From: Clostridium sp. CAG:609
Lineage (GTDB): Bacteria > Bacillota_I > Bacilli_A > RF39 > UBA660
Length of the DNA stretch: 64,000 nt
Direction of reading: 5' to 3'
NCBI GenBank assembly: GCA_000438075.1
Contig: FR903540.1
Span: forward strand, 14,086-78,085
Of this stretch, positions 16,295-63,664 are shown piece by piece. Made by a program: the position numbers and the translations under genes. The notes beneath the pieces are model-generated. The model saw only the letters and a list, made by a program, of their open reading frames with translations, was not told where the DNA came from and did no database searches. Each line of letters opens with the position of its first letter. Position 1 is the stretch's first letter.

Positions 16295-19200
16295 ATGGCT
16301 TATAAAGTAAAAAAATTTGGTGACTATCGTGAAAGAAGATGTTTTTCAAAGACGAAAAACGTTTTAGAATTGAATGATTTATTGGAAGTTCAAAAGAAAT
16401 CATACCAAGAATTCTTAGATACTGGTATCAAAGAAATATTTGATGACTTATTTCCAGTTGAAAGCTTTACTGGTAATATATCTTTAGAATTTGGTGATTA
16501 TTATTTTGATGAACCAAGATATTCAGTTAAGGAAGCTAAGGAAAGAATGGTTAACTATGCTGCTCCATTAAAGGTTGAAGCACGTCTTTACATTCACGAA
16601 ACTGGTGAAGTAAAAGAACAAACTATATTTCTTGGAGACATGCCACTTATGACTGAAGCTGGAACATTCATTATTAATGGGGCAGAACGTGTAATTGTTT
16701 CCCAATTAGTAAGAAGTCCAAGTGTATATTTCAAAAAAGAAATCGATAAGAATGGACGTCATATCTTAAGTGGTGAATTAATACCTAATAAAGGTACATG
16801 GCTTGAATATGAAACAGATGCTAGAGATGTTTTATATGTAAGAATTGATAGAACTAGAAAAGTTACAGTTACTACATTCTTAAGAGCTTTAGGTTTATCT
16901 AGTGATGATGATATTATTAGTCTTTTTGGTGATAATGATTATATTAATAATACATTAGAAAAAGATAGTACTAATAATACAGATGAAGCATTAATTGAAA
17001 TTTATGAAAAACTAAGACCTGGTGAACCAGCAACATTAGATTCTTCAAAGAACCAATTAATTACAAGATTCTTTGATAGATTCCGTTATGATTTAGCTAA
17101 AGTTGGACGTTATAAATTTAATAAGAAATTAAATATCTTAGATAGATTAGAAGGTTTAACACTCGCTGAACCATTAATTGATGGTGATAATGTTTTAGCT
17201 AATGCTGGTGATAAACTTACTAGTGAAGTTTTAGAAAATTTAAGACCATATTTTGAAAAAGGATTAAATGTTAAAGAACTTTTAATTAATGAAGAATTGG
17301 ATGACTATAAGACTGCTCAAGTAGTTAAAGTAGTAGATCCAGAAGATAGTAAAAAAACTATTAATATTATTGGAATTGACCCAAGCATTGATGTTAGACG
17401 TCTAACTATTCCTGATGTTTATGCATCATTAAGTTATTATATTGGACTTCATGAAAATATTGGTAGCGATGATGAAATTGATAACTTAGGAAACCGTCGT
17501 GTTCGTCAAGTTGGTGAACTTATTCAAAATCAATTTAGAATTGGTATGGCAAGAATGGAAAGAGTTATTCGTGAAAGAATGACTACTCAAGAATTAGATA
17601 CTGTTACACCTAAAACATTAATTAATATTAGACCAGTAACTGCAGCGTTAAAAGAATTCTTTGGTTCTTCACAATTATCTAAATTCATGGATCAAATTAA
17701 CCCAATAGCAGAACTTACTGATAAGAGACGTTTATCAAGTTTAGGACCTGGAGGTTTATCTCGTGAACGTGCTGGTATGGATGTTCGTGACGTTAATGCA
17801 TCTCACTATGGTCGTATTTGTCCGATTGAATCACCAGAAGGACAAAACATTGGTCTTATTACATCACTTGCTGGTTATGCTAAGATTAATGATTATGGTT
17901 TCATTATGACTCCATATCATAAAGTTGTTAATGGTGTTGTAACTAATGAAGTAGTTTATTTAACTGCTGATGAAGAAAAAGGACATGCTATTAGTCAAGC
18001 TGCTGTTAAGTTAGATGATGATAATAGAATTGTTGATAAGGAAGTAGTTGCAAGATATAATGGTGATACAATCTATGTAAAAAGAGAAAAAATTGATTAT
18101 GTCGATGTTGCTCCAAGTCAAGTTGTTGCTATTACAACAAGTTGTATTCCATTCCTTGAATTCGATGATGCCCACAGAACTTTGATGGGTGCAAACATGC
18201 AACGTCAAGCAGTACCTTTACTTACTTGTGAAGCTCCAATTGTTGGAACAGGTGTAGAATGTATTGCTGCAAGAGATTCTGGTTCAACTATTGTTGCTAA
18301 AGCAGATGGTGTAGTTGAATATGCTGATGGTTTAAAGATTATAGTTAAAACTGCTGGTGGTAAAGATACATATCATTTAGCAAATTATGAAAGAAGTAAT
18401 GCATCAAGTTGTATTAATCATCATCCAATTGTTAAAGCTGGAGATGCTATATGCCGCGGACAAGTTATTGCTGATGGTCCATCAACTGACATGGGTGAAC
18501 TTGCTTTAGGTAAAAACTTAACTGTAGCATTCATGACATTTGAAGGCTATAATTACGAAGATGCAGTAATCTTAAATGAAAGATTAGTAAAAGATGATGT
18601 TTATACATCACTTCATATATCACATTACGATATTGATTGTCGTGATACAAAACTTGGACCTGAAGAAATTACAAGAGATATTCCAAATGTTGGGGAAGAT
18701 GCTCGTAAGAATCTTGATGCTGATGGTATTGTAAGAATTGGTACTGAAGTAAGAGATGGTGATATTCTAGTAGGTAAAGTTACACCAAAAGGTATGCAAG
18801 AACTTACTAGTGAAGAAAAATTATTACATGCTATATTTGGTGAAAAGACTCGTGAAGTAAGAGATACATCACTACGTGTAGAACATGGTGCTGGTGGTAT
18901 CGTTCATGATGTTAAAGTTTATACAAAAGAAAATAGTGATGAACTTCCTGCAGGTGTATCTAAGATAATAAGAGTATATATTATTCAAAAACGTAAGATA
19001 CAAGTAGGGGATAAGATGTCTGGTCGTCACGGTAATAAAGGGGTTATTTCTTTAGTACTTCCTGAAGAAGATATGCCTTATTTACCAGATGGTAGACCTG
19101 TAGATGTTATGCTTAACCCATTAGGTGTTCCATCACGTATGAATATTGGACAAATCTTAGAATTACACTTAGGTATGGCTGGTAAAAAGTTAGGTGTTCA

Positions 19201-19930
19201 TTATGCTACTCCAGTATTTGATAGTGCAACATGGGAAGATATTTCTGAAGAAATGAAAGAAGCAGGAATGGAGCCAGATGGAAAAGTAGTACTTCATGAT
19301 GGTAGAACTGGAGAACCATTTGATCATAGAATCAATGTTGGGGTTATGTATATGGTTAAACTACATCACATGGTTGATGATAAACTACATGCTAGAGCAA
19401 CAGGACCTTATTCACTTGTTACTCAACAACCTCTAGGTGGTAAAGCTCAATTCGGTGGACAACGTTTCGGAGAAATGGAAGTTTGGGCATTATATGCTTA
19501 TGGTGCATCACATGTATTACAAGAAATCTTAACTGTTAAAGCTGATGATATCGTAGGTCGTGTAAAGGTTTATGAATCTTTAGTTAAAGGTAAAGTTATT
19601 GATCAAGCTGGTGTTCCTGAATCATTTAGAGTACTAGTTAAGGAATTCCAAGCACTTGGTTTAGATGTTCAAGTAATTGATAATGATGATAATGTATTAG
19701 AATTCAAAGACATCGAAGAAGATGAAGATGATAATGATGCATTTAGAATTGATGAAATAGATGTAACTACAAAAGAATTAAATAAAGATAATGTAGTTAA
19801 TGAAGAATTGGATAGTTATGATGACTATGATGATGATTTGGATGATGAAGAAGATTCATTAGATGATTTAGAATTTCCAGGAGATATTGAAGAAGAAGAT
19901 GTCTTAGATGAAGGGGAAGGTGAAGAATAA
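16295..19930 (+). CDS. rpoB: DNA-directed RNA polymerase subunit beta
   Basis: 1211 aa; [15 protein letters not shown] and other universal beta blocks; about 100-aa poly-acidic C-terminal tail. Confidence 0.98.
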
Positions 19931-24374: not shown

Positions 24375-24417
24375 ATAAAGGTTTAATGCCTTTATTTATA
24401 CAGAAAGGATGAGTAAA

Positions 24418-25563
24418 ATGATTATATATAAAGCATACAAATTTAGAATGGACCCAACTTTAGAACAAAAGCGTTTAATTAATCAAAATCTTGGTTCAGT
24501 TAGATTTATTCATAACCACTTTTTAGAAGAAAAAATCAAAACTTATGAAACTTATAAAAGAGTAGTTAGTCCATATTTGCAAATGAAGTCTCTAAGGAAA
24601 CTTAAAGATGAATATCCTTGGCTTAAAGAAGTTGATCATTGCTCTTTGATGACTACAATCTTTAATCTAGATGATACATTTAAATCTATGATTAAAGAAG
24701 GCAAATATCCTAATTATAAAAGTAAGTACAATAAAGAATCATACACAACTAATAATGAACTAAAAACGTGGGGTAATATAAAATATTATAGTGTTCGTCT
24801 TAATTTGAAAGACAGAATAGTCATTTTACCAAGGCTTAAAAGTGTGACAATTCGCGGATATAAAAAACTTTCCAGCATCAACGGAAAAATAAAGTCTGCA
24901 ACTGTGTCTAAGGTTGCTAATAAATTTTATGTCAGTTTGCTCGTAGAAATGTCCATCGAAGTTCCTGAAAACAAATGTGAAAAAATCTTAGGTATAGACT
25001 TAGGTATAAAAAATTATATAGTAACAAGTGATGGTAAAAAATATAAAAATGAAATCAACATTAATGAACAACGATTAAAAGGATTGCACCGTGCCTTATC
25101 TAGATCTACCAAAGGAAGTAGAAATCGTGAAAAAGTTATTATTAAGATTCAAAAGTTTTACCGAAGCTTAAAAAACAAACGAAAAACTCAAATTTGTGAG
25201 ATTGTTAAAAGAATCTTACAAGAGAATGATGTCGTTGTAACTGAGGACTTGGATGTAAAAAAAATGTATCAAACCAAGAGTATTGCAGTCAAGCTTAGGG
25301 ATGTTCCATTTACTAATTTTATAGAAACTATGTCATATAAGGCTAAGTGGCAAGGAAAGAAAGTTATTAAAATTGATAGATATTTTCCAAGTAGCCAAGT
25401 TTGTAGTGATTGTGGATATCAAAATAAAACACTCAAAGATTTAAGTGTTCGTGAATGGATTTGCCCGAAGTGTTACGCACATCATGATAGAGATATAAAC
25501 GCAAGTATAAACATAAAAAACGAAGGAATTAAAATTTTATTAAAGCAGTTGAACTTATATTAA
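24418..25563 (+). CDS. tnpB: TnpB RNA-guided endonuclease (OrfB_IS605 + Zn ribbon)
   Basis: N-terminal YKAYKFRMDPT..EQ. RuvC triad candidates GIDLGIKN, VVTEDLD, HDRDINASINI. Zn ribbon CSDCG...CPKC. Confidence 0.9.
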   Translation: MIIYKAYKFRMDPTLEQKRLINQNLGSVRFIHNHFLEEKIKTYETYKRVVSPYLQMKSLRKLKDEYPWLKEVDHCSLMTTIFNLDDTFKSMIKEGKYPNYKSKYNKESYTTNNELKTWGNIKYYSVRLNLKDRIVILPRLKSVTIRGYKKLSSINGKIKSATVSKVANKFYVSLLVEMSIEVPENKCEKILGIDLGIKNYIVTSDGKKYKNEININEQRLKGLHRALSRSTKGSRNREKVIIKIQKFYRSLKNKRKTQICEIVKRILQENDVVVTEDLDVKKMYQTKSIAVKLRDVPFTNFIETMSYKAKWQGKKVIKIDRYFPSSQVCSDCGYQNKTLKDLSVREWICPKCYAHHDRDINASINIKNEGIKILLKQLNLY

Positions 25564-27293: not shown

Positions 27294-27375
27294 TTATATC
27301 ACCACTTTAAGTATATCAAATTCTATGTACTTTTGCAAAATATTTTGCATATACTTAATTAGGAGTGTGATAAAT

Positions 27376-27915
27376 ATGTCTAGTTTCAAAGAAATCGTTA
27401 CAAAAGCAGTCATTGGCAAAGCTAAAAAAACAAACAATGCAAATTTTTTGTTAACCCCTGAAGAAAAACCAAACACAATCTTGGGTTGCTGGGTTATAAA
27501 TCATTCATTTAACGGATTAAAAGGACAAAATGGTCAAGTCGTAGTAAATGGTTCATTTGATGTTAATGTTTGGTACTCATTTGATGATGATAAAAAAACT
27601 GCAGTTACAACAAAAAACTTTTCGTATAGTGACAAGATGAATGTACCTCTTAGAAATGATGGAAACATGAATAATGCTAGTGAAATTATTGTTCGTTGCC
27701 TAAAACAGCCTACGGTATCTAACGTGTTTATTGAAAATGACCAAGTAAAGCTTGATATTGAAAAAGAAATGGGTGTTGAAATTGTAGGGGATGCAAAAGT
27801 TAAAGTAAGTGTAGAAGATGATTATGATGATTATGATGAAATAGTGGATGATGAAGTTGATAATGTTGATGATGTAATAGATAATATCGATGATAATTAC
27901 TTAAACAACAATTAA
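27376..27915 (+). CDS. cotE: outer spore coat morphogenetic protein CotE homolog
   Basis: MSSFKEIVTKAVIGKAKK...ILGCWVINH...DVNVWYSF... parallels B. subtilis CotE (MSEYREIITKAVVAKGRK...ILGGWIINH...DINVWYSY). Acidic C-terminal tail. The track ORF (from 27166) is over-extended antisense to the HIT gene. Confidence 0.75.
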   Translation: MSSFKEIVTKAVIGKAKKTNNANFLLTPEEKPNTILGCWVINHSFNGLKGQNGQVVVNGSFDVNVWYSFDDDKKTAVTTKNFSYSDKMNVPLRNDGNMNNASEIIVRCLKQPTVSNVFIENDQVKLDIEKEMGVEIVGDAKVKVSVEDDYDDYDEIVDDEVDNVDDVIDNIDDNYLNNN

Positions 27916-52900: not shown

Positions 52901-53821
52901 TTACTTCTTTTTTCGTTTTAATAAAGCTAGTGATTCTTCATTTGCAAATATTCTATCTTGCATACGATGAAGATTAAAACTTATCCATTCATTCCATGCT
53001 TCATTATTAGGATTTAAGGCAATACTAGCAAGTAGTTCACGGTATTCTTTTCGATATGGAATATAATTTTTAGAAAAATATATTGCTGGTAGAGGTAATT
53101 CAAATAAATTATTAGATATTGTTTTATTTGTTAAGTCTTGAAGTGTTATATGTTGAAAACATCTAGCAAGTCTAGTGTTACCATCTTCGAATACTTGTAA
53201 TACAGCGATTAAACCATGCATAATAAATGGTTTTATAAATAATTCTTCTTCATCTTTTATTGGTGTATTAAAATATTTACATAATAGAAGTGTTGATTCT
53301 TTGATATCATCATAAGATATTGGAAAATAATATATTACTGGTTTATTATCTTCAATATAGCCAACATAATGATGATTGTTTGTTCTAAAACCTTCATTTA
53401 TCGTATTTCCATTACTTGTTCCACGCATTAATATTTCGTGAGCTTTTTTTATTATTGCATCATTTAATGGTGTATTTTCTTTTAAAAGTTTACGCACTAA
53501 ATATCTGATTACAGTAGAGTGGTGTGTTTCATTATAGATTCTTAAAAAGTTTACATTTTCTCTTTCTAATACATGATTATCAATTATTTCTGAATTCATC
53601 AAAGCTTTAAGTATTGATTCTTGGGTTTCTTTACTATACTTTAATATGTCTTCGATGTATTCTATATATAATTCTTTAGTGAAATTCATTAACTTTTCAA
53701 TATCACTTCTTAGTTTTAAATCATCAATATAGTCGAATAATCTAACATCGACGATTTTTTCACGTGCTTCTTTTAAATCTTTTACTTGGAAATATTCTAG
53801 GTCTTCCTTGGTATATGACAT
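52901..53821 (-). CDS. Fic-fold protein with degenerate active-site motif
   Basis: 306 aa from the ATG after RBS AGGGGGAG (track ORF extends to 53902). Core ...HGLIAVLQVFEDGNTRLARCF... aligns with HPFx(D/E)GN(G/K)R, with Gln in place of the catalytic His. Confidence 0.75.
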   Translation of the reverse strand: MSYTKEDLEYFQVKDLKEAREKIVDVRLFDYIDDLKLRSDIEKLMNFTKELYIEYIEDILKYSKETQESILKALMNSEIIDNHVLERENVNFLRIYNETHHSTVIRYLVRKLLKENTPLNDAIIKKAHEILMRGTSNGNTINEGFRTNNHHYVGYIEDNKPVIYYFPISYDDIKESTLLLCKYFNTPIKDEEELFIKPFIMHGLIAVLQVFEDGNTRLARCFQHITLQDLTNKTISNNLFELPLPAIYFSKNYIPYRKEYRELLASIALNPNNEAWNEWISFNLHRMQDRIFANEESLALLKRKKK

Positions 53822-53896
53822 ATAAATCTCCCCCTTTAAATTGGTTATTATTTTAGCACTATTTCTCCGTTTTGTCAACTTTATTAAAACATAAAT

Positions 53897-53925
53897 TTGC
53901 ATTTTTCTTTTAAATGTGGTATAAT
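53897..53925 (+). promoter_or_regulatory. putative promoter of the J-domain operon (a divergent Fic promoter is also present)
   Basis: TTGCAT (53897-53902), 17-nt spacer, TG-extended TATAAT (53920-53925). On the minus strand TTGACA-17-TAAAAT lies at ~53844-53872. Confidence 0.5.
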
Positions 53926-53951: not shown

Positions 53952-55412
53952 ATGTATACAACTAAAAATATATTAGATGATTTATCCTTACTTGGTTTAA
54001 AAGAAGTAGAAAATGAAAAACAAATTAAATATTCTTGGAAAAAAACTTTAAAAAAGGTACATCCGGATATAGGTGGAGATACTTTAACTTCACAAAGGGT
54101 GAATGAAGCATATGAAAAACTTATGAATTTTGTTCATACACATGATCAAAAGTTTTTAGAATACTTTAATTTACTTATAAAATTAGTAATTGATTCATTA
54201 AATAATTATAAGTTAAATAGTTATTGTAGTGATATAATTATTTGTATTGATGAATATTTAACATATGGGTGTAACCCATTAGTTGGATATAATACTTGTT
54301 TAAATAAAATACATAACATATATAGAAACTTAGCAAGTGATTTGAATATATTGGGAAGTTTTCAGTTTAATCAAACATTAAGTAACTTTTATAGTAGTTT
54401 ATTAAATAAAGATATACCTCATGATTATTATTCTTTTTTAGAAAAATATAAGAAAAATAAAGAATATGCTTCTTTAGAAAATCAAATTATTAAAATAATT
54501 AAAGAATCTTTAAATAGTAGTGATGCAAAAAGAGTTATAATAGCAGAAAAGAAAATAGATGCATTATTTAGTATTGATAGATTAATAAAAGCTAATTTAC
54601 CTTATTTTAAAGATATGAAAAATAAAATAAATTGCAGAATTATATCAATGGAATATGAAGAAATATTAGATTGTTATTTAACAAAGAGATACGATAATAT
54701 TGAATTTAAAGTAAATAGATTAATTCAAGATATAAAACTAAGCTTTTTGTTTCAAGGTAGTATTTATGATAAATTATTATGTGCTCGTGTTAAAGCATAT
54801 AGATACTTTTATATAAATAAGGATATATCAATTATGATGTATGATGATATAGATGATTTTATTAATGGAACAAAAGATATATCTATTCTTGATAAAATAA
54901 TAAATAATGATTTTGAGAGTAAGGATGAATATTTAAAAGTATCATCTTTAGATAGAAAAGGCAGTGTATTTTTATTAAATAGAAAAAGTGATGTACCAGA
55001 TATAGCAGTTTTATATGCAGGTATAGTAAAGGATATAAATAATGATTCTGTTTATGTATCTGGGGTAAATTATTTAAGGAGTCAAGATGCAAATATCGAA
55101 AAAAATTTCTTTTTAAATAATTATGTGTCAATAGATGAATATTTATCTAATGCAAAATTTTTAGGGGTTAAATTATATGTTGCATCACCAGTTATTATTT
55201 TATATACTAATGGTTTAGTGGATATTTGTTTATCAAAAGAAATGCAAGTTTTTGTGGCACCAGCAAGAATGGTTGTAAGAAGTGTTAAAGAAAGTGATGA
55301 AAAATTAGCTAAATATCAAGATAAAGAATATTTAAAAGAAGAAGTTACTAAATACTTACAAGAACGTATTAGTAAAAGTAGAATGAGGGTAGGTAAAAAT
55401 GGAATATGTTGA
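53952..55412 (+). CDS. J-domain (HPD) protein, paralog 1, novel C-terminal architecture
   Basis: 486 aa; LGL...IKYSWKKTLKKVHPDIGGD...RVNEAYEKL; no G/F region, Zn finger or DnaJ C-terminal domain. Confidence 0.7.
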   Translation: MYTTKNILDDLSLLGLKEVENEKQIKYSWKKTLKKVHPDIGGDTLTSQRVNEAYEKLMNFVHTHDQKFLEYFNLLIKLVIDSLNNYKLNSYCSDIIICIDEYLTYGCNPLVGYNTCLNKIHNIYRNLASDLNILGSFQFNQTLSNFYSSLLNKDIPHDYYSFLEKYKKNKEYASLENQIIKIIKESLNSSDAKRVIIAEKKIDALFSIDRLIKANLPYFKDMKNKINCRIISMEYEEILDCYLTKRYDNIEFKVNRLIQDIKLSFLFQGSIYDKLLCARVKAYRYFYINKDISIMMYDDIDDFINGTKDISILDKIINNDFESKDEYLKVSSLDRKGSVFLLNRKSDVPDIAVLYAGIVKDINNDSVYVSGVNYLRSQDANIEKNFFLNNYVSIDEYLSNAKFLGVKLYVASPVIILYTNGLVDICLSKEMQVFVAPARMVVRSVKESDEKLAKYQDKEYLKEEVTKYLQERISKSRMRVGKNGIC

Positions 55413-56865
55413 AGCTTTAGAAATACTTAAATTAAGTGAAGAATTTTGCGATGAAGATTTAAAGAAAGCTTATAAAAGTGCATCAAAAATATATCACCCA
55501 GATTTAGGTGGTTCAACAGAAATGATGCAAAAAGTTAATGAAGCATATGATTTATTGTTAAAAGAACCGAGATATATACATATAACTAAAAGTTATAATG
55601 CAATTAGTTATCATGAAGAATGGGTTATGCAATTAAAAGAAAAACTTGCAGATGCTAAAAAAAATGATCCAAACTACATTGAAATAATGAAAGTTATACA
55701 AGATTTTGAAAACATGAATATAACTGGTATGACTTTAATGGATATACATAGAGAATTTGTTAATGCAAATAGTAAGATACTTGATATATTCTATGAAATA
55801 AAAAGAAAATTTTTTAAAGAAAACTATATATCTAAAGATTTTAAGTATGAAATTGATTTTACTAGTTCATTAAATAAATTATATTATGATTTAGATAAGA
55901 TTAAGTGTGAATTTGATCATTATGTTTATAGTAGTATTGTTATAAATGAAGTTGTTAAGAAGAATGTTGGTAATTTCTATTATAAATTTTTAGAAGATAA
56001 AGTAATGGAAATTTGTAATCAAGTATGTAAAGAGTATTTTGATAGTAAATCTATTTTAGATAAAATAAATATTATTAATAATAAAGTAAATGGATTATAT
56101 GTTATATATGAAGATAGTTTAAATGTTATTGATAATTTAAAGTTAGTTACTAATAATAGTGATTTAATAAAAAGAGAAATAGATAAAATGAACAATGATT
56201 ACTATAGTAATTATGGAAGACTTAATGAATTATTAGTTAGTGTATCTTCATCTAAGAAAAGCAAAGACATTAGAAAAAGTATTAAGATTAAGGAATATGT
56301 TACACGTAAGTACATGAATAACAACGAGTTGTTAAGAAGAATGTTACTTGATATTCATTATGTTAATATTGGTCTTATAAAAACAGAATGTTTAGATGTT
56401 ATATTAGATAAGAATTATGATAGTGTTGATGAGTATAATGAAGCTATTTATAAGCATATTGGTAAGAGTGATATAATTTTTGTTAATAATAAACTTATTA
56501 CTAATTATTCTCCATGCGTTGGAGTTTTACAATCTATATTTGATAATCAAGTATGTTTTGGTGGTAAGCTAATGAATAAAGAATATTTTTATAATCATTA
56601 TGAATCATTATCTATGATGCTTAGAGATATAGAATTTATCGGAGAATTACTTAATACTGGTGAAATATTATTATACACGAATAACATAATTGCTATTTAT
56701 AAAGGTAACGATGGAATTTATTTTAAGTTTTATGATAAGAAACGTGGTAAAAGAATAAATCATCCGGATATAGATAAGTATAAAGATAAGATACTTTTAA
56801 GAAATGAGATAATTGAATTTTTAAACAATGAGGTTATTTATGAAAATGATAGATTGTCAAAGTAA
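55399..56865 (+). CDS. J-domain (HPD) protein, paralog 2
   Basis: 488 aa; ALEILKLSEEFCDEDLKKAYKSASKIYHPDLGGSTEMMQKVNEAYDLL; 14-nt overlap with paralog 1. Confidence 0.75.
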   Translation: MEYVEALEILKLSEEFCDEDLKKAYKSASKIYHPDLGGSTEMMQKVNEAYDLLLKEPRYIHITKSYNAISYHEEWVMQLKEKLADAKKNDPNYIEIMKVIQDFENMNITGMTLMDIHREFVNANSKILDIFYEIKRKFFKENYISKDFKYEIDFTSSLNKLYYDLDKIKCEFDHYVYSSIVINEVVKKNVGNFYYKFLEDKVMEICNQVCKEYFDSKSILDKINIINNKVNGLYVIYEDSLNVIDNLKLVTNNSDLIKREIDKMNNDYYSNYGRLNELLVSVSSSKKSKDIRKSIKIKEYVTRKYMNNNELLRRMLLDIHYVNIGLIKTECLDVILDKNYDSVDEYNEAIYKHIGKSDIIFVNNKLITNYSPCVGVLQSIFDNQVCFGGKLMNKEYFYNHYESLSMMLRDIEFIGELLNTGEILLYTNNIIAIYKGNDGIYFKFYDKKRGKRINHPDIDKYKDKILLRNEIIEFLNNEVIYENDRLSK

Positions 56866-57634
56866 AACATATTATGAACCAGATTCTTTGGAAGTAATAT
56901 ATCAAAAAAAAATTCAGATAATTGTTGATGATGCTAATAGATATGCTTTAGTTAGTCCGAATTATTCTGGTATTGAATATAGATACTTTTATAAAATGAT
57001 AAAAGATTTATATGCTGAATATGCGATTAGAGTATTAAATAAGTTTAAGTTACCTTTAGATAGTTTTAGTTATAAAGATGATTTTGATTTTGATAGATTA
57101 GTATTAGAATTAAATATGTTTGTTATATTAAATACTGGTAAATCTGAGCTATCTAGTGATTTAGTGGCATCTTACAAAAGTGTAAGAGACTATGATGTTG
57201 ATTCACTTGAATATCAATATGCAGAAATGATTAATAGATATATTGAGTTTTGTGGTAATAAAAAAATGTATTCAATGGATTTAAGATATATTGAAGAATT
57301 TATTAATAAATCATATATGGCTTATGCTAAAAGTAAATTAGATGGTTTAAACATATATCCTGATTTAGATATATTCGTACCATTTGATGTATTTGTAATT
57401 AGACTTGATAATATAATAAATGAATATTGGTATAAAAAAGATATAATGGTTAAGTTAGAAAATATAGCAATGAGTTATTATGTTGAATCAGGAGTTGTGT
57501 ATGATGGGAAAATAAATAAACTTATGCATGATGCATTTAACAATATAATTGAAAATAGAGATTTAGAAGAGTTTTATTTAAATAAATTTAAAAGAGATAT
57601 AAGACTTGATAATACATTAGAAAGAAGGAAGTAA
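56840..57634 (+). CDS. hypothetical helical protein (operon member, no HPD)
   Basis: ATG 56840 lies 6 nt after GAGG (track start 56828); overlaps the end of the previous gene by 26 nt. Confidence 0.6.
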   Translation: MKMIDCQSKTYYEPDSLEVIYQKKIQIIVDDANRYALVSPNYSGIEYRYFYKMIKDLYAEYAIRVLNKFKLPLDSFSYKDDFDFDRLVLELNMFVILNTGKSELSSDLVASYKSVRDYDVDSLEYQYAEMINRYIEFCGNKKMYSMDLRYIEEFINKSYMAYAKSKLDGLNIYPDLDIFVPFDVFVIRLDNIINEYWYKKDIMVKLENIAMSYYVESGVVYDGKINKLMHDAFNNIIENRDLEEFYLNKFKRDIRLDNTLERRK

Positions 57635-57635
57635 A

Positions 57636-59003
57636 ATGAGTAGTATTAAATATTTGTTAAAAGAATTTAATGATATTAATAAAGCTAAGTTAAAGTTTGT
57701 TAACGAAACAATTGATGAGTTAAGAAGCAGTGATTTAATGGTACCAATAGGTATTGGAAAGTTTGCTATGGATGAGAGATTAATCAAAGTATTTAAGCAA
57801 TATCAAATACCCCTTTTAGAAGAAAATGCATTTACTTATATAGAGTATATGGTATTTTATGAAGAATATATTAAAAGTTTAGAGAAAGTTATATTTACTA
57901 CTGATTCAATGATCAGAGCTTTTGATAAAACTAAGTGTATTGGTAAAATAAATGATTTTTATTTATTAATAGTTTGTTTAAGTCTGGGTTATATGGCAAA
58001 TAAGATTGAACTGGAATCTGTTATTAATATATTAGGTAGTGCAATTAAATTTAATTATACTAAGTATAGTAAAGAAAATTTATTACTTAAAGCTTTAAGT
58101 AATTACTTTGATAATAATGGTAATTTTGTTAAATATGGTAATGGTTTAGAATTAGTTGAATTATTAAAGAAATTATATAAAGAAAATATTGATGAAAATA
58201 GCATGGATAAAAAAGTTGATGTTATTTGTAATAGCTTAATTATTAATATTGGTGTTAGTTATGATGAGTTTTTAGAAAATATAAAAGAAGAATTTGTGGA
58301 AGATAAAAAGAAAATAAAGCGTGAAAAAGTTGAAGTAGAAGAACATTTTCCAGAGGAAGAGACTAGGGAAAAATATCCATTTTTAAGTAAAGAAGAAAAA
58401 GAAATATATGAGTATTGTTCAAATAATATAGAAAGTATTAGTTATAGAAGTGATTATCAATATTATTTAGAAGCTTGCAAAGATATTCAAAGTTTAGATC
58501 TGTTATATCAAGATTTAGAAAATAGTGAAGTGTTAGAAATTAAAAATGAGGTAATGGAAAAGTTGTATAGTTTAGTAAGACTTATTGGTCCATTACATTA
58601 TAATAGAGAAAATGAAATTGTGTTTTTAAAAAATAGTAAGAGTAGTTTTTATGTAAGTGATGATATATTAAAAATAGATAAAGGGTTAAGAAAAAAGATT
58701 AATACACTTTTTGATAAGTTATTAAATAATGTTAATACTAGAACTGTTTTAAATAATAATATTAAAAGAGGTGAATTATTATTTGTAAATGATTCTAATT
58801 TAGTTTTGACTTATTGTAAGTTATGTAGTGATACTTCATTAGTAATAGGTATTCATCCGGTGAAGGAAGGAATGAATGAAGATATAAATAGATATTTACT
58901 TAATAAAAAGTATATTGAAAGTTTAAAGACATTAGTTAAAGATAATAATAGTCGTGAAGAATTAGTTAGTAGTAGTAGACTACTTGTTAAAACAAGAGAC
59001 TAA
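57636..59003 (+). CDS. hypothetical protein (operon member, no HPD)
   Basis: 455 aa; starts 1 nt after the previous stop. Confidence 0.6.
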   Translation: MSSIKYLLKEFNDINKAKLKFVNETIDELRSSDLMVPIGIGKFAMDERLIKVFKQYQIPLLEENAFTYIEYMVFYEEYIKSLEKVIFTTDSMIRAFDKTKCIGKINDFYLLIVCLSLGYMANKIELESVINILGSAIKFNYTKYSKENLLLKALSNYFDNNGNFVKYGNGLELVELLKKLYKENIDENSMDKKVDVICNSLIINIGVSYDEFLENIKEEFVEDKKKIKREKVEVEEHFPEEETREKYPFLSKEEKEIYEYCSNNIESISYRSDYQYYLEACKDIQSLDLLYQDLENSEVLEIKNEVMEKLYSLVRLIGPLHYNRENEIVFLKNSKSSFYVSDDILKIDKGLRKKINTLFDKLLNNVNTRTVLNNNIKRGELLFVNDSNLVLTYCKLCSDTSLVIGIHPVKEGMNEDINRYLLNKKYIESLKTLVKDNNSREELVSSSRLLVKTRD

Positions 59004-59013
59004 GGAGGTTAAT

Positions 59014-60363
59014 ATGAGACTGGAAGAAGCTATTAAAATATTTGAAATTGGGAAAAGATTTACAAAAGAAGAATTAAAGAAAAGATATATTATGTTATCT
59101 AAAGCAAATCATCCGGATTTAGGTGGTAGTAAAAGTGATATGCAAAGAATTAATGAAGCATATGAATTGTTAAAAGAAATTACTATAAATAGTGGAGATT
59201 TATCATATTATAATACTTTACTTAATAAGTTATTTACTTATAAAAGTAATACTATATATAATACAGATACTATAGAATATAAATATGCTTTAAGGGTTAA
59301 TAATTTAATATCTAGTTTTGCATATAGTAGTGAAAATAAAGATACATTAGATTTTAACTTTAAAAATATATTAGTTCAAATTAGAAATGCATTTAATGAT
59401 TATTTAATGGAAGTATCAAAAAATATACCTAGTATTTATAAAAGCAAATTTAAAACGATAGAAAATGAATGTTCTTTTGATAAGTATGTTTTAAATGTAA
59501 AAAAAGTATTAAATGAATATAAGATGATTAATGATAGTTTAAGTGATGCAATTAATTCAATTGATTTAAGTGTTGATATCAATATATTGGAAGAAATATT
59601 AAAGATTAAAGAAGATGTATTTAAAGAAATTGTACTTAATAAAATAGATTTAAATACTGCATGTGGTAAACTTAGAACTCTTGCAATTACTTTGATTATG
59701 CAAAGAATGAATTTTGATAAAAAAATAAATGAAACATATAAAGTGATACTTGAAAAATTTTATAAAAGAATGATGGAGTTAGATTTTAAAGAAAGTGATG
59801 ATATTAAATCAACTATTAATTTATTAAGTAGTGTATTAAATAAACTAAAATTTTTAGATGGACATCTAGATAAATCTAGTGACTTAGATGAATTATGTAA
59901 TATAGATTTTGAAAATAAAATGAATGTTTTAGATAAAGGTATTGAACAAATATATATAAGTGTAAGTAATAAATCTAATCCATATGAATTTGTTATTAGA
60001 AAAGGTGAAAATGAAAAATTTGTTTATTTTGATAGAAAAGATAAAAATGGTAATGTTAAAGTTTATGTACGAGGTAAAAAAGGTTTTTATGAAAATTATA
60101 TGAAGTTATCAGAGTTTTTAGATAAAGCTAATTATCTTTTTGTTAAATCTAATGGAGGAGTACTTATCTATATGTATGAAGATGTTGGTATTTATGTAGG
60201 AAGGGATGCATCAATATATGTAGATAAAATTAATTATGAATGGTATTCTGTAAATTTTAAAAGTGATAGATATGAAGATAAGTCTAAGTTAATGTTTGAT
60301 ATATATGAATCGTTTTATAAAGAAAAAGTTTATAAAGAAAATGAAAAGACAAAATCAAGATAA
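59014..60363 (+). CDS. J-domain (HPD) protein, paralog 3
   Basis: 449 aa from the ATG after AAGGAGG (track start 58984). AIKIFEIGKRFTKEELKKRYIMLSKANHPDLGGSKSDMQRINEAYELL. Confidence 0.75.
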   Translation: MRLEEAIKIFEIGKRFTKEELKKRYIMLSKANHPDLGGSKSDMQRINEAYELLKEITINSGDLSYYNTLLNKLFTYKSNTIYNTDTIEYKYALRVNNLISSFAYSSENKDTLDFNFKNILVQIRNAFNDYLMEVSKNIPSIYKSKFKTIENECSFDKYVLNVKKVLNEYKMINDSLSDAINSIDLSVDINILEEILKIKEDVFKEIVLNKIDLNTACGKLRTLAITLIMQRMNFDKKINETYKVILEKFYKRMMELDFKESDDIKSTINLLSSVLNKLKFLDGHLDKSSDLDELCNIDFENKMNVLDKGIEQIYISVSNKSNPYEFVIRKGENEKFVYFDRKDKNGNVKVYVRGKKGFYENYMKLSEFLDKANYLFVKSNGGVLIYMYEDVGIYVGRDASIYVDKINYEWYSVNFKSDRYEDKSKLMFDIYESFYKEKVYKENEKTKSR

Positions 60364-60439
60364 ATTTAGTGAAACTTGTGGACAAATACTTAAAAAAGTG
60401 GTATAGTTTAGTTGTTAGTTTATTGACAAACCAGTAATT

Positions 60440-60630
60440 AATAGGATTTTTATAGAGAGCTAATGGGTGGTGGAAATTAGTAAATGAATATTAATGAAGA
60501 TAGTGTCTTAAAAAAATAAACGGGTAAGCCCGATATAGCAGGTAATAAAGATGCATAGATTCTATGAATTAAGGTGGCACCGCGGATAATAATTCGTCCT
60601 TAAGCTAAATTAATTCATGGAGTTTTTTAA
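60440..60630 (+). promoter_or_regulatory. T-box riboswitch leader, aspartate specifier (GAU)
   Basis: AGAGA (60454-60458) and GGTGGTGG distal motif. Specifier GAT+A at 60499-60502. T-box AATTAAGGTGGCACCGCGG (60567-60585) with 7-nt bulge UGGCACC. Helix 60562-60572/60610-60620 is followed by a U6 run. Confidence 0.8.
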
Positions 60631-60647: not shown

Positions 60648-62384
60648 ATGAAAGGAAATATGTACAGAGATATTTATTGTGGAGAAGTTGATTCTTCATA
60701 TATAGGAAAGGAAATAAAGTTAGCTGGTTGGGTTAATAGTGTAAGAAATTTAGGTAATTTAGTATTTATTACTTTAAGAGATGAAACTGGTATTGTTCAG
60801 CTTATTACTGAATCTAGTGAATATAAAACTATTCATAAAGAAGCAACTGTTACTGTTAGTGGCAAAGTTTTAAGAAGAACACCAGATATGGTTAATAAAA
60901 ATATGAAAACTGGTGAAGTTGAAGTAGAAATTAGTTCATTAGAAGTTTTAGGGGATTGTATTAATACATTACCTTTTGAAATTAATAAATCAAAAGAATC
61001 TAATGAAGATACAAGACTTAAGTATCGTTATTTAGATTTAAGAAATGAAGAAGTTCATAATAATATTATTTTTAGAAGTAAAGTAATTGATTTTATAAGA
61101 AGTGAAATGAAAGGAATGGATTTTTTAGAAGTTCAAACTCCGATTATTACAGCAACAAGTCCAGAAGGAGCTAGAGATTTTATTATTCCATCAAGAAAGT
61201 TTGCAGGTAAGTTTTATGCACTACCTCAATCACCACAAATATTTAAACAATTATTAATGGTTTCAGGATTTAATAAATATTTTCAAATAGCACCATGCTT
61301 TAGAGATGAAGATCCAAGAAGTGATAGATTATATGGAGAATTTTATCAACTTGACTTTGAAATGAGCTTTGCAACTGATGAAGATGTTTATAAAGTTGGT
61401 GAAAAAGTTTTTTATGATGTATTTACTAAGTTTAGTGATAAGTATGTAAGTCCAGCACCTTTTAGAAGAATAAAGTTTAAAGATGCAATACTTAAATATG
61501 GTAGTGATAAACCAGATTTAAGAAATCCTCTTATTATTGAAGACATAACTGAAGTGATGAATAAAACTGATTTTGCACCATTTAAAAATACAACTGTTAG
61601 ATGTATCAAAGTAGAAAATATTGAAAAATCTAATTCTTGGTATAAATCTATGGAAGAATATGTAAAAGGTATTCATGGTAATTTAGGTTATATTCAAGTT
61701 AAAGATAATATGGAATTAAAATCATCACTTGCTAAATTTATGAGCGATGAAGTTAAAAATGAACTAATAGAAAAAATGAATTTACATGTCGGAGATGCTT
61801 TATTTATTGTAGCGGATAAAAATAGATGTGCTAGAATAATGGGTAATTTAAGAACTAAGTTAGGTAATGAGCTTAATTTAATTGATAAAGATAGATATGA
61901 ATTTTGTATTGTAAATGATTTTCCATTCTATGAAGAAAATGAAGAAACTGGAGCAATTGAGTTTTCTCACAATCCATTTAGTATGCCAAAAGGTGGGCTT
62001 GATGCATTAAATAATAAGAATCCATTTGAAATTGAAGCTTATCAATATGACTTTGTTTGTAATGGTTATGAAATGGCTTCAGGTGGAGTAAGAAATCATT
62101 CACCAGAAGTTTTAAAGAAAGCATTTGCTTTGGTTGGCTATGATGAAGATGTTGTAAGAAGTAAATTCCCAAGTTTATATGAAGCATTTAAATATGGTGC
62201 TCCACCTCATGCAGGTATGGCACCTGGATTAGATAGAATTATAATGCTTTTAAAAAATGAAGAAAATATAAGAGAAATAGTACCATTCCCAATTGGTGCA
62301 AATGGTGCAGATGCTATGATGGGTTGTCCAGGGGAAGCTTTCCCAGAACAATTAAAAGAAGCACATATCAAAATAGATAATTAA
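60648..62384 (+). CDS. aspS: aspartate--tRNA ligase
   Basis: 578 aa; class IIb motifs FRDEDPRSDR and GMAPGLDRIIM; N-terminal OB fold. Confidence 0.95.
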   Translation: MKGNMYRDIYCGEVDSSYIGKEIKLAGWVNSVRNLGNLVFITLRDETGIVQLITESSEYKTIHKEATVTVSGKVLRRTPDMVNKNMKTGEVEVEISSLEVLGDCINTLPFEINKSKESNEDTRLKYRYLDLRNEEVHNNIIFRSKVIDFIRSEMKGMDFLEVQTPIITATSPEGARDFIIPSRKFAGKFYALPQSPQIFKQLLMVSGFNKYFQIAPCFRDEDPRSDRLYGEFYQLDFEMSFATDEDVYKVGEKVFYDVFTKFSDKYVSPAPFRRIKFKDAILKYGSDKPDLRNPLIIEDITEVMNKTDFAPFKNTTVRCIKVENIEKSNSWYKSMEEYVKGIHGNLGYIQVKDNMELKSSLAKFMSDEVKNELIEKMNLHVGDALFIVADKNRCARIMGNLRTKLGNELNLIDKDRYEFCIVNDFPFYEENEETGAIEFSHNPFSMPKGGLDALNNKNPFEIEAYQYDFVCNGYEMASGGVRNHSPEVLKKAFALVGYDEDVVRSKFPSLYEAFKYGAPPHAGMAPGLDRIIMLLKNEENIREIVPFPIGANGADAMMGCPGEAFPEQLKEAHIKIDN

Positions 62385-62475: not shown

Positions 62476-62628
62476 ATGAAAAAGAAAATAATAATTATTT
62501 TAACAACAATAGTAGTTCTTACTAGTATAATTGTTATATATAATAAGGATAAAGAACTTGAAAATAATAAAATCTTAATAGAGAAAGGATTTCTAAATGA
62601 AAAAAATTATTGTAGTAATAATCATTAG
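62476..62628 (+). pseudogene. signal-anchor-only remnant of the secreted paralog family (50-aa ORF, not in track)
   Basis: MKKKIIIILTTIVVLTSIIVIYNKDKELENNK... mirrors the first ~30 aa of the next two genes and then runs out of frame into 62597. Confidence 0.3.
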
Positions 62629-63664
62629 TCTTTTTGGAGTATTTTTAATAACAAATAAGTATTATTATAAAGATAATGTTGATAAAGAACAACCTAATAA
62701 AATAAAAAATGATAAAAATATGTTGAGTTTAATGCTTGAAACTGATGTTGGTTCTGGCACATATTCTGTTAGTAGTTCTAGTGATTGGCCAAATGAAGAA
62801 TATATTTATAATAGTGAATTATCTAAATGTGAAAATGGAAGTATACTTTCTTGGGATGAAAATAAGAATGTAGCAATTATGAAGGGAAATATTAGTGATA
62901 AATGTTACTTATATTTTGATAAAATTGATCCTAATTCTCCGAAACCTACTAATCCAACTTTATCTTTTGATAGTACTTATAATGTTGTAATTAGTGGTTC
63001 AACTTCAGAAAATGGTGGTGTTGAATATTATTATAGTTTTGATAATGTAAATTATACCAAAGGCTCAACTATTTCTGTTAATGAAACTTCAACTATTTAT
63101 GCTTATAGTAAAGATATAAAAAAGAGAAAGTCTGATGTAGTAAGTAAAACTGTTACAATTAGTAATTCAACCAAAGGAACTGTATCTACTGCATATTATT
63201 GCTCTAAAAATGGTACTTACAAAACTAGTTCGTCATGTACTTATACATATAACGCAACCAGTAAAACAGAGTTTGTCTGTTCTGATGGAAGTTATAGTGC
63301 GAGTCTTGGACATTGTTATGATACAAATGGAATGTATAGTAACTGGGATTGGTCAACTTGTAATAGTACTTGTGGTTTGAAAACTTATAATCCTGAGGAA
63401 TATTCTTTTGAATGTGTTGAAGATAATACTGGAAATTATTATTATTGTCAATTTAATACCGGAAGTCCGACTAAATCAACTTCTTATTCTTGTACTAGTG
63501 GTGATTCATTATCTGGATCAAAATGTACTAATTCTTACACGGGGACTTTAAAATATAAATGTGGTAATAAATATTACAACAATAATACTGATGCTACTAC
63601 AGCTTGTGAAAATTATTGTGCAATGGGAACACATTATGATGGAAAGTGTTATAAAATTAGCTGA
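62597..63664 (+). CDS. membrane-anchored/secreted Cys-rich protein, paralog family
   Basis: 355 aa. N-terminal TM, conserved LSLMLETDVGSGTY...WP.EEY.YN.ELSKCENGS block, and 20 Cys in the C-terminal 160 aa in recurring Y.C..G......C spacing. Confidence 0.7.
   Translation: MKKIIVVIIISLFGVFLITNKYYYKDNVDKEQPNKIKNDKNMLSLMLETDVGSGTYSVSSSSDWPNEEYIYNSELSKCENGSILSWDENKNVAIMKGNISDKCYLYFDKIDPNSPKPTNPTLSFDSTYNVVISGSTSENGGVEYYYSFDNVNYTKGSTISVNETSTIYAYSKDIKKRKSDVVSKTVTISNSTKGTVSTAYYCSKNGTYKTSSSCTYTYNATSKTEFVCSDGSYSASLGHCYDTNGMYSNWDWSTCNSTCGLKTYNPEEYSFECVEDNTGNYYYCQFNTGSPTKSTSYSCTSGDSLSGSKCTNSYTGTLKYKCGNKYYNNNTDATTACENYCAMGTHYDGKCYKIS

Follow-up and report, generated by a model that had tools for sequence, protein, structure and literature searches.

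The window analysed here is a stretch of 64,000 nucleotides from Clostridium sp. CAG:609 (contig FR903540.1, positions 14,086 to 78,085 of the forward strand), to which all coordinates without a further label refer. Near its end lies a row of five open reading frames (ORFs), J1-J2-X3-X4-J5. A preliminary description, made from the letters of the DNA, had read three of them as J-domain proteins of novel architecture and two as having no recognisable motif, beside a divergent Fic gene, and had proposed a DnaK-directed system. It located the genes correctly, as five co-directional ORFs on the forward strand at 53952-60363:

53952-55412, forward strand, J1, 486 amino acids
55399-56865, forward strand, J2, 488 amino acids
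56840-57634, forward strand, X3, 264 amino acids from the ATG used by gene callers in relatives
57636-59003, forward strand, X4, 455 amino acids
59014-60363, forward strand, J5, 449 amino acids

An alternative reading of X3, of 268 amino acids, begins at 56828. The junctions are likewise as described, being in order a 14-nucleotide overlap, a 26-nucleotide overlap, a 1-nucleotide gap and a 10-nucleotide gap. The last of these, between X4 and J5, holds the ribosome-binding site of J5 (AAGGAGG, 59002-59008), which overlaps the X4 stop codon, and the J1 ATG is preceded by the ribosome-binding site GAGGGGG.

The HPD tripeptides of J1, J2 and J5 lie in true J domains, judged by profile matches, by conservation of the tripeptide and by the modelled fold of J2. 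Pfam PF00226 (DnaJ) matches J2 at 34.2 bits and J5 at 28.7 bits, both over the cut-off of 27.8. J1, the most divergent J-domain paralogue, falls under that cut-off at 23.1 bits; it is also matched by the phage J-domain family phrog_13942 and by a J-domain hidden Markov model (HMM) built from the family (2e-07). The scores with phrog_13942 are all higher than with Pfam DnaJ (J2 60.7, J5 50.5 and J1 34.2 bits). The domains are encoded at 53952-54130 (J1, residues ~10-59), 55399-55565 (J2, residues 1-55) and 59014-59180 (J5, residues 1-57), and are of the short HPDxGG type that is also found in Tim14 and polyomavirus T antigens, with a helix II rich in Lys and Arg. All 11 J5-type relatives match DnaJ, with 9e-14 as the best value. 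J1, J2 and J5 have HPD, as do 15 of 16 family members, and it is invariant in the J5 family alignment (A7). The remaining member, in the related stretch L067 (103-1575, P0037; further relatives are given by such L numbers), has HSD in a J domain that is otherwise intact and lies directly 5′ of aspS; this variant may be a naturally inactive J domain.

J2 was the one of the three J proteins that we modelled. The AlphaFold2 model has a mean predicted local distance difference test score (pLDDT) of 64.8, rising to 73-92 across the J-domain helices, and places HPD between helices 18-32 and 40-55. Its best structural match is Tim14 (2guz_A; root-mean-square deviation 0.8 Å over 56 columns, target-normalised template modelling score (TM-score) 0.74, 41% identity), and it also superposes on Sis1, on 4rwu, on the DnaK-bound J domain of DnaJ (5nro_B) and on many others (Foldseek, probability 0.9-1.0).

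Beyond the J domain the three proteins share a C-terminal module, as had been claimed, at ~336-470 of J1 (54957-55361), 350-488 of J2 (56446-56862) and 335-449 of J5 (60016-60360), which is beta-rich in J2. Smith-Waterman alignments of the module score z = 7-12, above all 300 composition-preserving shuffles, and hhalign gives 97% for J2 against J1 (E 9e-11) and 92% for J2 against J5 (E 7e-7). BLASTP among the three detects the J domain only, so that the paralogy of the remainder is established by the shuffle statistics and the profiles. When composition was not corrected for, the BLASTP E-values of all pairs of these Asn/Lys/Ile-rich proteins were inflated, and they were discarded. The middle regions are long, helical and Asn/Lys/Ile-rich, with no significant pairwise similarity among J1, J2 and J5 (Smith-Waterman z 0-2). 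J5, whose type is the most widely conserved in related genomes, consists of a J domain, a post-J module, a helical middle and the C-terminal module.

None of the three carries DnaJ_C, the zinc finger, HscB_C or the G/F region, the J domain being the sole Pfam match, and the NCBIfam equivalogs for class A/B DnaJ, CbpA, HscB and DjlA, which have cut-offs of 150-600, give 12-27 bits. No part of the proteins is predicted to span a membrane (maximum 19-residue Kyte-Doolittle hydropathy at most 1.54). The architecture is thus novel in the sense of the preliminary description, being found in none of Pfam, NCBIfam and PADLOC. For the non-J part of J2, Foldseek searches of PDB and BFVD returned noise-level KOW/SH3-like matches only. 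A DUF7778 match of J5 (Pfam, E 0.02) was dropped because it recurred in just two of the 11 relatives.

X3 is not the motif-less ORF that it had seemed, but a J-less truncated member of the J family. It carries two tandem helical 'post-J' modules of ~90 residues (~7-95 and 110-200) with the pattern Y.S..Y..DSLE.(K)YA..IN..I ... FD.FV, the module that follows the J domain in J5-type proteins. It aligns in hhalign with the J5 family (82%, E 1e-5) and with the J-less family of related genomes (85%, E 6e-6); the J5mid HMM, for the J5 middle, matches it twice, and the Smith-Waterman score against that middle is z = 4.4. A Pfam match to Phage_int_SAM_4 (E 0.003) is below threshold. Related genomes encode full-length J-less paralogues (JL) of 433-450 amino acids, which align with the J5 family from just past the J domain nearly to the C-terminus (hhalign 99.4%, E 7e-22) and whose genes adjoin J-bearing family genes in L009, L010, L012, L014 and L025. 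By these profile comparisons four of the five window genes are one family, in J-bearing and J-less forms, and the earlier picture of three paralogues with two unrelated ORFs gives way to one of four paralogues with X4 as a distinct partner that has a toxin-like predicted fold.

X4 stands apart as a family of ~12 clusters. No match to it was found in Pfam, NCBIfam, PADLOC or PHROG, no sequence similarity to 13 Pfam BECR families, and hhalign against the J family gives a probability below 1%; the last result led us to reject a homology that had been suggested by eye between the X4 C-terminal domain (GELLFVND...) and the C-terminal module of the J proteins (GEILLYTNN...). The AlphaFold2 model, made from 12 sequences (pLDDT 65.7), has a helical N-terminal two-thirds and a C-terminal alpha/beta domain at ~325-410 (58608-58865) in the order beta-alpha-beta-beta-beta-beta-alpha. 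In a Foldseek search of PDB with this model, 17 of the 21 best matches were toxins that belong to the RelE/ParE superfamily (probability 0.44-1.00, at least 0.94 in 12 of the 17; target-normalised TM-score 0.38-0.68; E 0.06-0.65), among them S. pneumoniae HigB, YafQ, M. tuberculosis RelE1 and RelE2, archaeal RelE, ParE2, YoeB and Cami1. The C-terminal domain of X4 is therefore likely to have a RelE/ParE fold, so that X4, too, is less featureless than the preliminary description held, though by predicted fold only. Invariant polar residues of the family are R324, D343, D348, R369, K377, D399, H407, R419, N423 and K424; the Arg, Lys and His residues among them (R369, K377, H407, R419) are as would be expected of a putative RNase site. 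X4 always directly precedes a J-family member, with gaps of a few nucleotides, in five arrangement types.

The operon is bounded by the following features:

52901-53821, reverse strand, Fic-fold gene, 306 amino acids from the ATG at 53821, divergent neighbour of J1
53878-53850, reverse strand, promoter-like site on the Fic side, TTGACA-17-TAAAAT with TG
53896-53925, forward strand, promoter-like site on the J1 side, TTTGCA-18-TATAAT with TG
60419-60604, forward strand, T-box leader of aspS (Rfam RF00230, 91.4 bits, E 7.9e-21, full-length model match)

The two promoter-like sites stand back to back, ~18 bp apart, and have the top two scores in an 8-kb scan; since that scan was overall not enriched over shuffles, they are candidates only. 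The T-box lies below the RF00230 gathering score of 93; at the Rfam gathering threshold nothing was found in the window, and it was seen only in the E-value search. It leads into aspS (60648-62384), has a candidate promoter-like site 5′ of it (60379-60407), and sets the 3′ boundary of the J operon, aspS being regulated separately. Given the sites between Fic and J1 and the separation by the T-box, J1-J2-X3-X4-J5 look like a single transcription unit apart from aspS.

The window is core chromosome (tkt, rpsD, def, ftsW, hup, rpoB, rpoC, alaS, relA/spoT, further a hybrid histidine kinase and an Hpt response regulator, then aspS), and the neighbourhood is free of phage genes. The operon does not belong to any prophage or secretion module; membership in one already characterised is what the preliminary description had named as fatal to its proposal. 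Megablast of the locus against 50,697 phage records gave no match; IMG/VR scans gave matches to the J domain only and nothing for X4 or the non-J part, the viral similarity being confined to the first 55-60 residues of the J proteins. PADLOC-DB v2 has no match for J1, X3, X4 or J5 and one at chance level for J2 (E 0.034). The phage-defence, stress or sporulation role that the preliminary description had suggested is conjectural.

Some further genes of the window may be recorded here. An IS605-type OrfB/TnpB gene of 384 amino acids lies downstream of rpoC (24409-25563, forward strand), and in strain L064 a TnpB copy (18410-19552) sits between the Hpt response regulator and Fic, adjoining the array. 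For the gene at ~27370-27915 (forward strand), the equivalent in a near-identical contig (L062, 7825-8364) matches Pfam CotE (spore-coat protein E), a surprise in a 'Tenericutes-like' gut bacillus of small genome and relevant to the question whether the lineage sporulates. Downstream of aspS, 62597-63664 (forward strand) encodes a protein of 355 amino acids that has a hydrophobic segment at the N-terminus and in which Cys, Ser, Thr and Tyr are numerous. Its evolution is fast, the identity in L001 being 50% where AspRS has 93%, and the shorter L007 and L008 stretches compared contain no counterpart.

The locus is conserved outside this genome, in metagenome-assembled genomes (MAGs) of related gut Bacilli, with variable gene content. 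Six J2-related clusters came from a k-mer-indexed search of 5.8 billion proteins, and exhaustive HMMER of 1.84 billion representative proteins with the non-J profile found 15 proteins at E <=0.001. For most of these the contig or genome was traced, and in every such case it belongs to related gut Bacilli that are uncultured and of low GC; source genomes are human-gut 'Bacilli' MAGs (HRGM_Genome_2006, Hadza MAGs, Firmicutes bacterium CAG:460, Tenericutes UMGS686). J2 and X4 have 284 sequence variants each on record, and all five ORFs are intact in each strain examined (L004, L005, L007, L008). The array is nearly always just 5′ of the T-box-controlled aspS and varies in copy number:

Window lineage (L004-L008): Fic, J1-J2-X3-X4-J5, aspS
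L001: Fic, a single J2-type gene, aspS
L068: relA-dtd-gtrA, X4, J2-type, 174-aa fragment, aspS
L070: gtrA, J2-type
L067: HSD variant, aspS; the contig starts at the J gene
L012, L014, L025: X4-JL-J5-type, aspS, with an extra duplicated fragment in L012 and L025
L009, L010: X4-JL-J (618-627 aa, two post-J modules)-JL-J5-type, aspS
L023, L069: solitary J5-type gene adjoining DUF2207/LemA genes
L065: solitary 554-aa member near dus and an aminoacyl-tRNA synthetase gene

Adjacency to aspS was rejected as a clue to function, the genomes being close relatives (AspRS 87-93% identical) whose synteny is explained by descent. The fragments in L012 (11477-12172) and L025 (11453-12145) are ORFs of 230 amino acids in which the first ten aspS codons (MKENMYRDIY) are joined to the C-terminal half of a J5-type protein; on this composition they are the scar of a tandem duplication across the J5/aspS junction. 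A similar 174-aa fragment, J2C, lies at 7318-7842 of L068. Genomes that lack Fic here have a large protein (964-1200 aa), with repeat-like segments that appear leucine-rich by eye, encoded divergently upstream of X4:

L010, 390-3992, reverse strand
L012, 4203-7097, reverse strand
L014, 4184-7108, reverse strand
L025, 4202-7105, reverse strand

Across genomes with the AspRS identity just given, J5-type proteins are ~34% identical, X4 35-45% and J2-type proteins 25-51%. The family diverges ~6-10 times faster than AspRS, yet is under purifying selection. The J domain is the best conserved part, at 44-60% identity against 22-36% in the rest of each protein. Between close strains the ratio of nonsynonymous to synonymous substitution rates (dN/dS) is ~0.16-0.34 for J1, J2 and X4 and 0.07-0.13 for AspRS and the response regulator, so that the former are constrained, less tightly than housekeeping genes; the values for X3 and J5, 0.57-1.07, derive from very few substitutions. 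A divergence hot spot at codons 321-400 of J2 (56359-56598), the start of the C-terminal module, has dN 0.16-0.17 and dN/dS 0.80-0.86 between strains, against 0.04-0.43 in the remainder of J2.

The X3-X4-J5 block (57000-60400, compared with L004, L007 and L008) has 98-99.5% DNA identity and dS 0.01-0.06, against dS 0.10-0.23 in flanking housekeeping genes of the same strains, which suggests that it has recently spread by recombination. In L008, J1-J2 are more diverged than the flanks. Judged from these divergences, recombination has made the operon a mosaic. Conflict loci typically show rapid divergence, changes in copy number, scars of duplication and mosaicism, though these are no proof of one.

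When its HPD is intact and its helix II basic, a J domain binds Hsp70 in the ATP-bound state and sets off hydrolysis, and DnaK then clamps the cargo that is presented. Because the HPD tripeptides lie in real J domains, whose role is known, that the locus acts through DnaK is a sound inference. J1, J2 and J5 are best read as class-C (type III) co-chaperones with a novel cargo-binding part, and the five-gene operon may, by analogy, be a new chaperone-controlled toxin-like module. We tentatively favour, at rather less than even confidence, a reading in which these co-chaperones recruit DnaK to a complex that X4 forms with their own paralogues, and so gate a toxin-like effector. The N-terminal J domains, from what is known of such domains, would dock on DnaK and trigger its ATPase, and the helical region and C-terminal module would bind the cargo. 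This cargo would be a complex of X4 with J-family paralogues, including J-less ones such as X3; we infer hetero-oligomers with X4 from the translational coupling, the constant adjacency and the post-J and middle regions that J-bearing and J-less paralogues share, and the RelE/ParE fold, predicted from a model of medium confidence, suggests X4 as the DnaK-gated effector. DnaK delivered by the J proteins would either keep the X4 effector folded but inactive or remodel and activate it, so that X4 activity would be set by the level of free DnaK in the cell. The logic would resemble that of toxin-antitoxin-chaperone (TAC) systems, with a J-domain adaptor replacing the SecB-like chaperone; toxin activity of X4 and its gating by a chaperone are thus proposed by analogy only. 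Fast divergence and copy-number change point to a role in conflict or stress, for example in phage abortive infection or as an addiction-like stress switch.

Links of this kind have precedents. DnaK binds the HigB-family toxin GraT and raises its toxicity (PMC7918210), phage sensing by bNACHT25 is mediated by DnaJ (PMC12169576), and in TAC systems a SecB-like chaperone stabilises the antitoxin, a link that a phage protein can break (PMC5105189, PMC6377645, PMC11980606).

Several results weigh against an X4 effector gated in this way. The RelE/ParE matches of X4 have Foldseek E-values of only 0.06-0.65, and the model has pLDDT 45-68 in that domain. Eight full-length and seven C-domain X4 sequences gave no RelE, ParE, HigB, YafQ, YoeB or Gp49 profile match at E up to 10, and a profile search of PDB sequences with X4 gave nothing. 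No antitoxin-like DNA-binding domain was found, the family members that follow X4 having no recognisable antitoxin domain. The array is vertically inherited at one core-chromosome position, which is not the behaviour of a mobile defence island, and no PADLOC model matches. Family members stand without an adjoining X4 in L001, L023, L065, L069 and L070, so that the J proteins must have a function that is independent of an adjacent X4.

A bolder form of the same proposal, which we think quite unlikely, makes X4 a RelE/ParE-fold effector that is restrained or licensed, as a permanent DnaK client, by the hetero-oligomer of J and J-less proteins, in what would be the first TAC-like system wired to Hsp70. 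Titration of DnaK by phage structural proteins or by proteotoxic stress would release X4 and stop translation, and in an arms race the J proteins would use their C-terminal modules, which evolve fast, as sensor or specificity surfaces.

Solitary family members without X4 are what would be expected if the J proteins were lineage-specific co-chaperones that send DnaK to a housekeeping client or site (the ribosome, the translation machinery, or a cytoskeletal or coiled-coil scaffold), with X4 a client or adaptor and neither toxin nor conflict involved. TopJ of Mycoplasma is a comparison for a scaffold-targeted co-chaperone. The stable core-chromosome site, beside aspS and downstream of relA-dtd, the purifying selection and the long helical Asn/Lys/Ile-rich middles agree with such a role, and class-C J proteins generally work in this way (diversity survey, PMC10410713). 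However, co-chaperones of this sort seldom diverge 6-10 times faster than their neighbours, vary in copy number or show hot spots; the family is limited to 15 clusters in 1.84 billion representative proteins, and the fold matches of X4 are almost all toxins. We regard a housekeeping role, the chief alternative to gating of X4, as possible, though on balance doubtful.

The Fic gene could be thought to form one system with the J operon, Fic modifying or monitoring DnaK as FICD does BiP and the J proteins directing DnaK accordingly. Its Fic fold is genuine (Pfam Fic 33.6 bits, above the cut-off; PADLOC SoFic 1e-19), with 26 bits against a cut-off of 550 for the NCBIfam SoFic equivalog. Purifying selection (dN/dS 0.12-0.19) shows that the gene is functional in some way, and the divergent layout, with the back-to-back promoter-like sites, and the Fic-J adjacency kept in L001 would suit a common system. 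The window and L004 have the motif QVFEDGNTRLAR, however, and L001 has QTFEDGNTRLAR, against the consensus HxFx(D/E)GNGRxxR; the changes of the catalytic His to Gln and of the second Gly to Thr (GNG to GNT) are conserved in L001, and with the catalytic His replaced, Fic is unlikely to AMPylate DnaK in the manner of FICD. Six other arrangements of the array lack Fic, and no Fic gene adjoins it in L009, L010, L012, L014, L025, L068 and L070 (also in L067, but there the contig begins at the J gene). Adjacency is confined to the window lineage and its close relative L001, where Fic is 86% identical, and genomes so close (AspRS 93-98% identical) would be expected to share synteny by descent alone. 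The divergent Q-variant Fic gene that had been described is thus real, but it accompanies the closest relatives only and is not a constant neighbour of the array; we see no evidence that it is part of the J system, and a joint system is very improbable.

As improbable is that the extra copies are decaying tandem duplicates without collective function, one ancestral J gene being the one that matters. A single J gene does occupy the same site in L001, relatives have duplication scars (230 aa in L012 and L025, 174 aa in L068), and dN/dS reaches 0.57-1.07 in X3 and J5, on very few substitutions; but the five ORFs are intact in L004, L005, L007 and L008, 284 variants each of J2 and X4 are on record, dN/dS is low in J1, J2 and X4 (0.16-0.34), HPD is conserved and translational coupling is retained. 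Least likely of all is a phage-derived or anti-defence cassette, with domesticated phage co-chaperones that hijack DnaK like Rki of phage RB43: phage J-domain proteins are known (PMC3486835), phrog_13942 outscores Pfam DnaJ on all three J domains and the HPDxGG type recurs in polyomavirus T antigens and Tim14, but the viral matches end with the first 55-60 residues, no viral contig encodes the non-J part or X4, and the neighbourhood has no phage genes.

The sites of Hsp70 action are set by J-domain proteins, of which bacteria are believed to have just a small number that are conserved. Here a small-genome gut bacterium devotes one operon to three additional J-domain proteins, a J-less paralogue and their partner. 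Current domain databases do not see this family, whose evolution is like that of a conflict locus and which is linked to a protein of toxin-like predicted fold. Should the proposed gating be wrong, there remain a new class-C J-domain family and the new X4 family in an abundant uncultured human-gut lineage; should it be right, the locus would offer a natural case of J-bearing and J-less paralogues regulating each other, with proteins that are tractable heterologously.

The components are of known kind, namely J-domain co-chaperones and possibly a BECR-fold effector. Neither the domain libraries nor the literature searched yielded the J family, its J-less paralogues, the array of coupled tandem genes or the association with X4, and the literature searches returned no description of this J family or of a link between J domains and RelE. 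As for the neighbouring Fic, it shares the fold of SoFic and Fic-Doc proteins, with the motif QxFEDGNTRxxR and not HxFx(D/E)GNGRxxR. Like the class C J proteins (DjlA, DjlB/DjlC, HscB, Rki, Tim14/Pam18), J1, J2 and J5 have the N-terminal J domain alone in common with DnaJ, and their predicted activity is likewise stimulation of the Hsp70/DnaK ATPase and delivery of specific clients. Unlike the known members of that class, they have a non-J part of ~400 amino acids that matches no Pfam, NCBIfam or PDB entry, and their family forms tandem coupled arrays with J-less paralogues, evolves very fast and is restricted to one small lineage.

X4 may be compared with multidomain RelE/ParE (BECR-fold) toxins such as the CARF-RelE protein Cami1 (PDB 8phj), which also have a C-terminal RelE-like domain behind an N-terminal part that could sense or regulate, although the N-terminal domain of X4 is novel. 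A recent survey of multidomain RelE/ParE toxins mentions neither J-domain proteins nor DnaK (PMC11980606).

TAC systems (HigB-HigA and the SecB-like HigC) resemble the conserved core X4-JL-J in that a protein of RelE/HigB-type fold, predicted in the case of X4, comes first and is followed by partners, among them one that connects the system with a general chaperone, so that effector activity would depend on chaperone availability. They differ in that the link here would be a J domain that recruits DnaK and not a SecB homologue; no SecB or helix-turn-helix (HTH) domain was found in any of the five proteins with Pfam and NCBIfam. X4 is moreover a multidomain protein of 455 amino acids whose RelE-like fold is predicted only, no HigA-like HTH antitoxin or chaperone-addiction (ChAD) element is recognisable, and the order in the window is J1-J2-X3-X4-J5. 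The resemblance is one of functional analogy only; if the gating proposed here is true, the principle behind TAC systems would no longer be limited to SecB but would take in the DnaK system.

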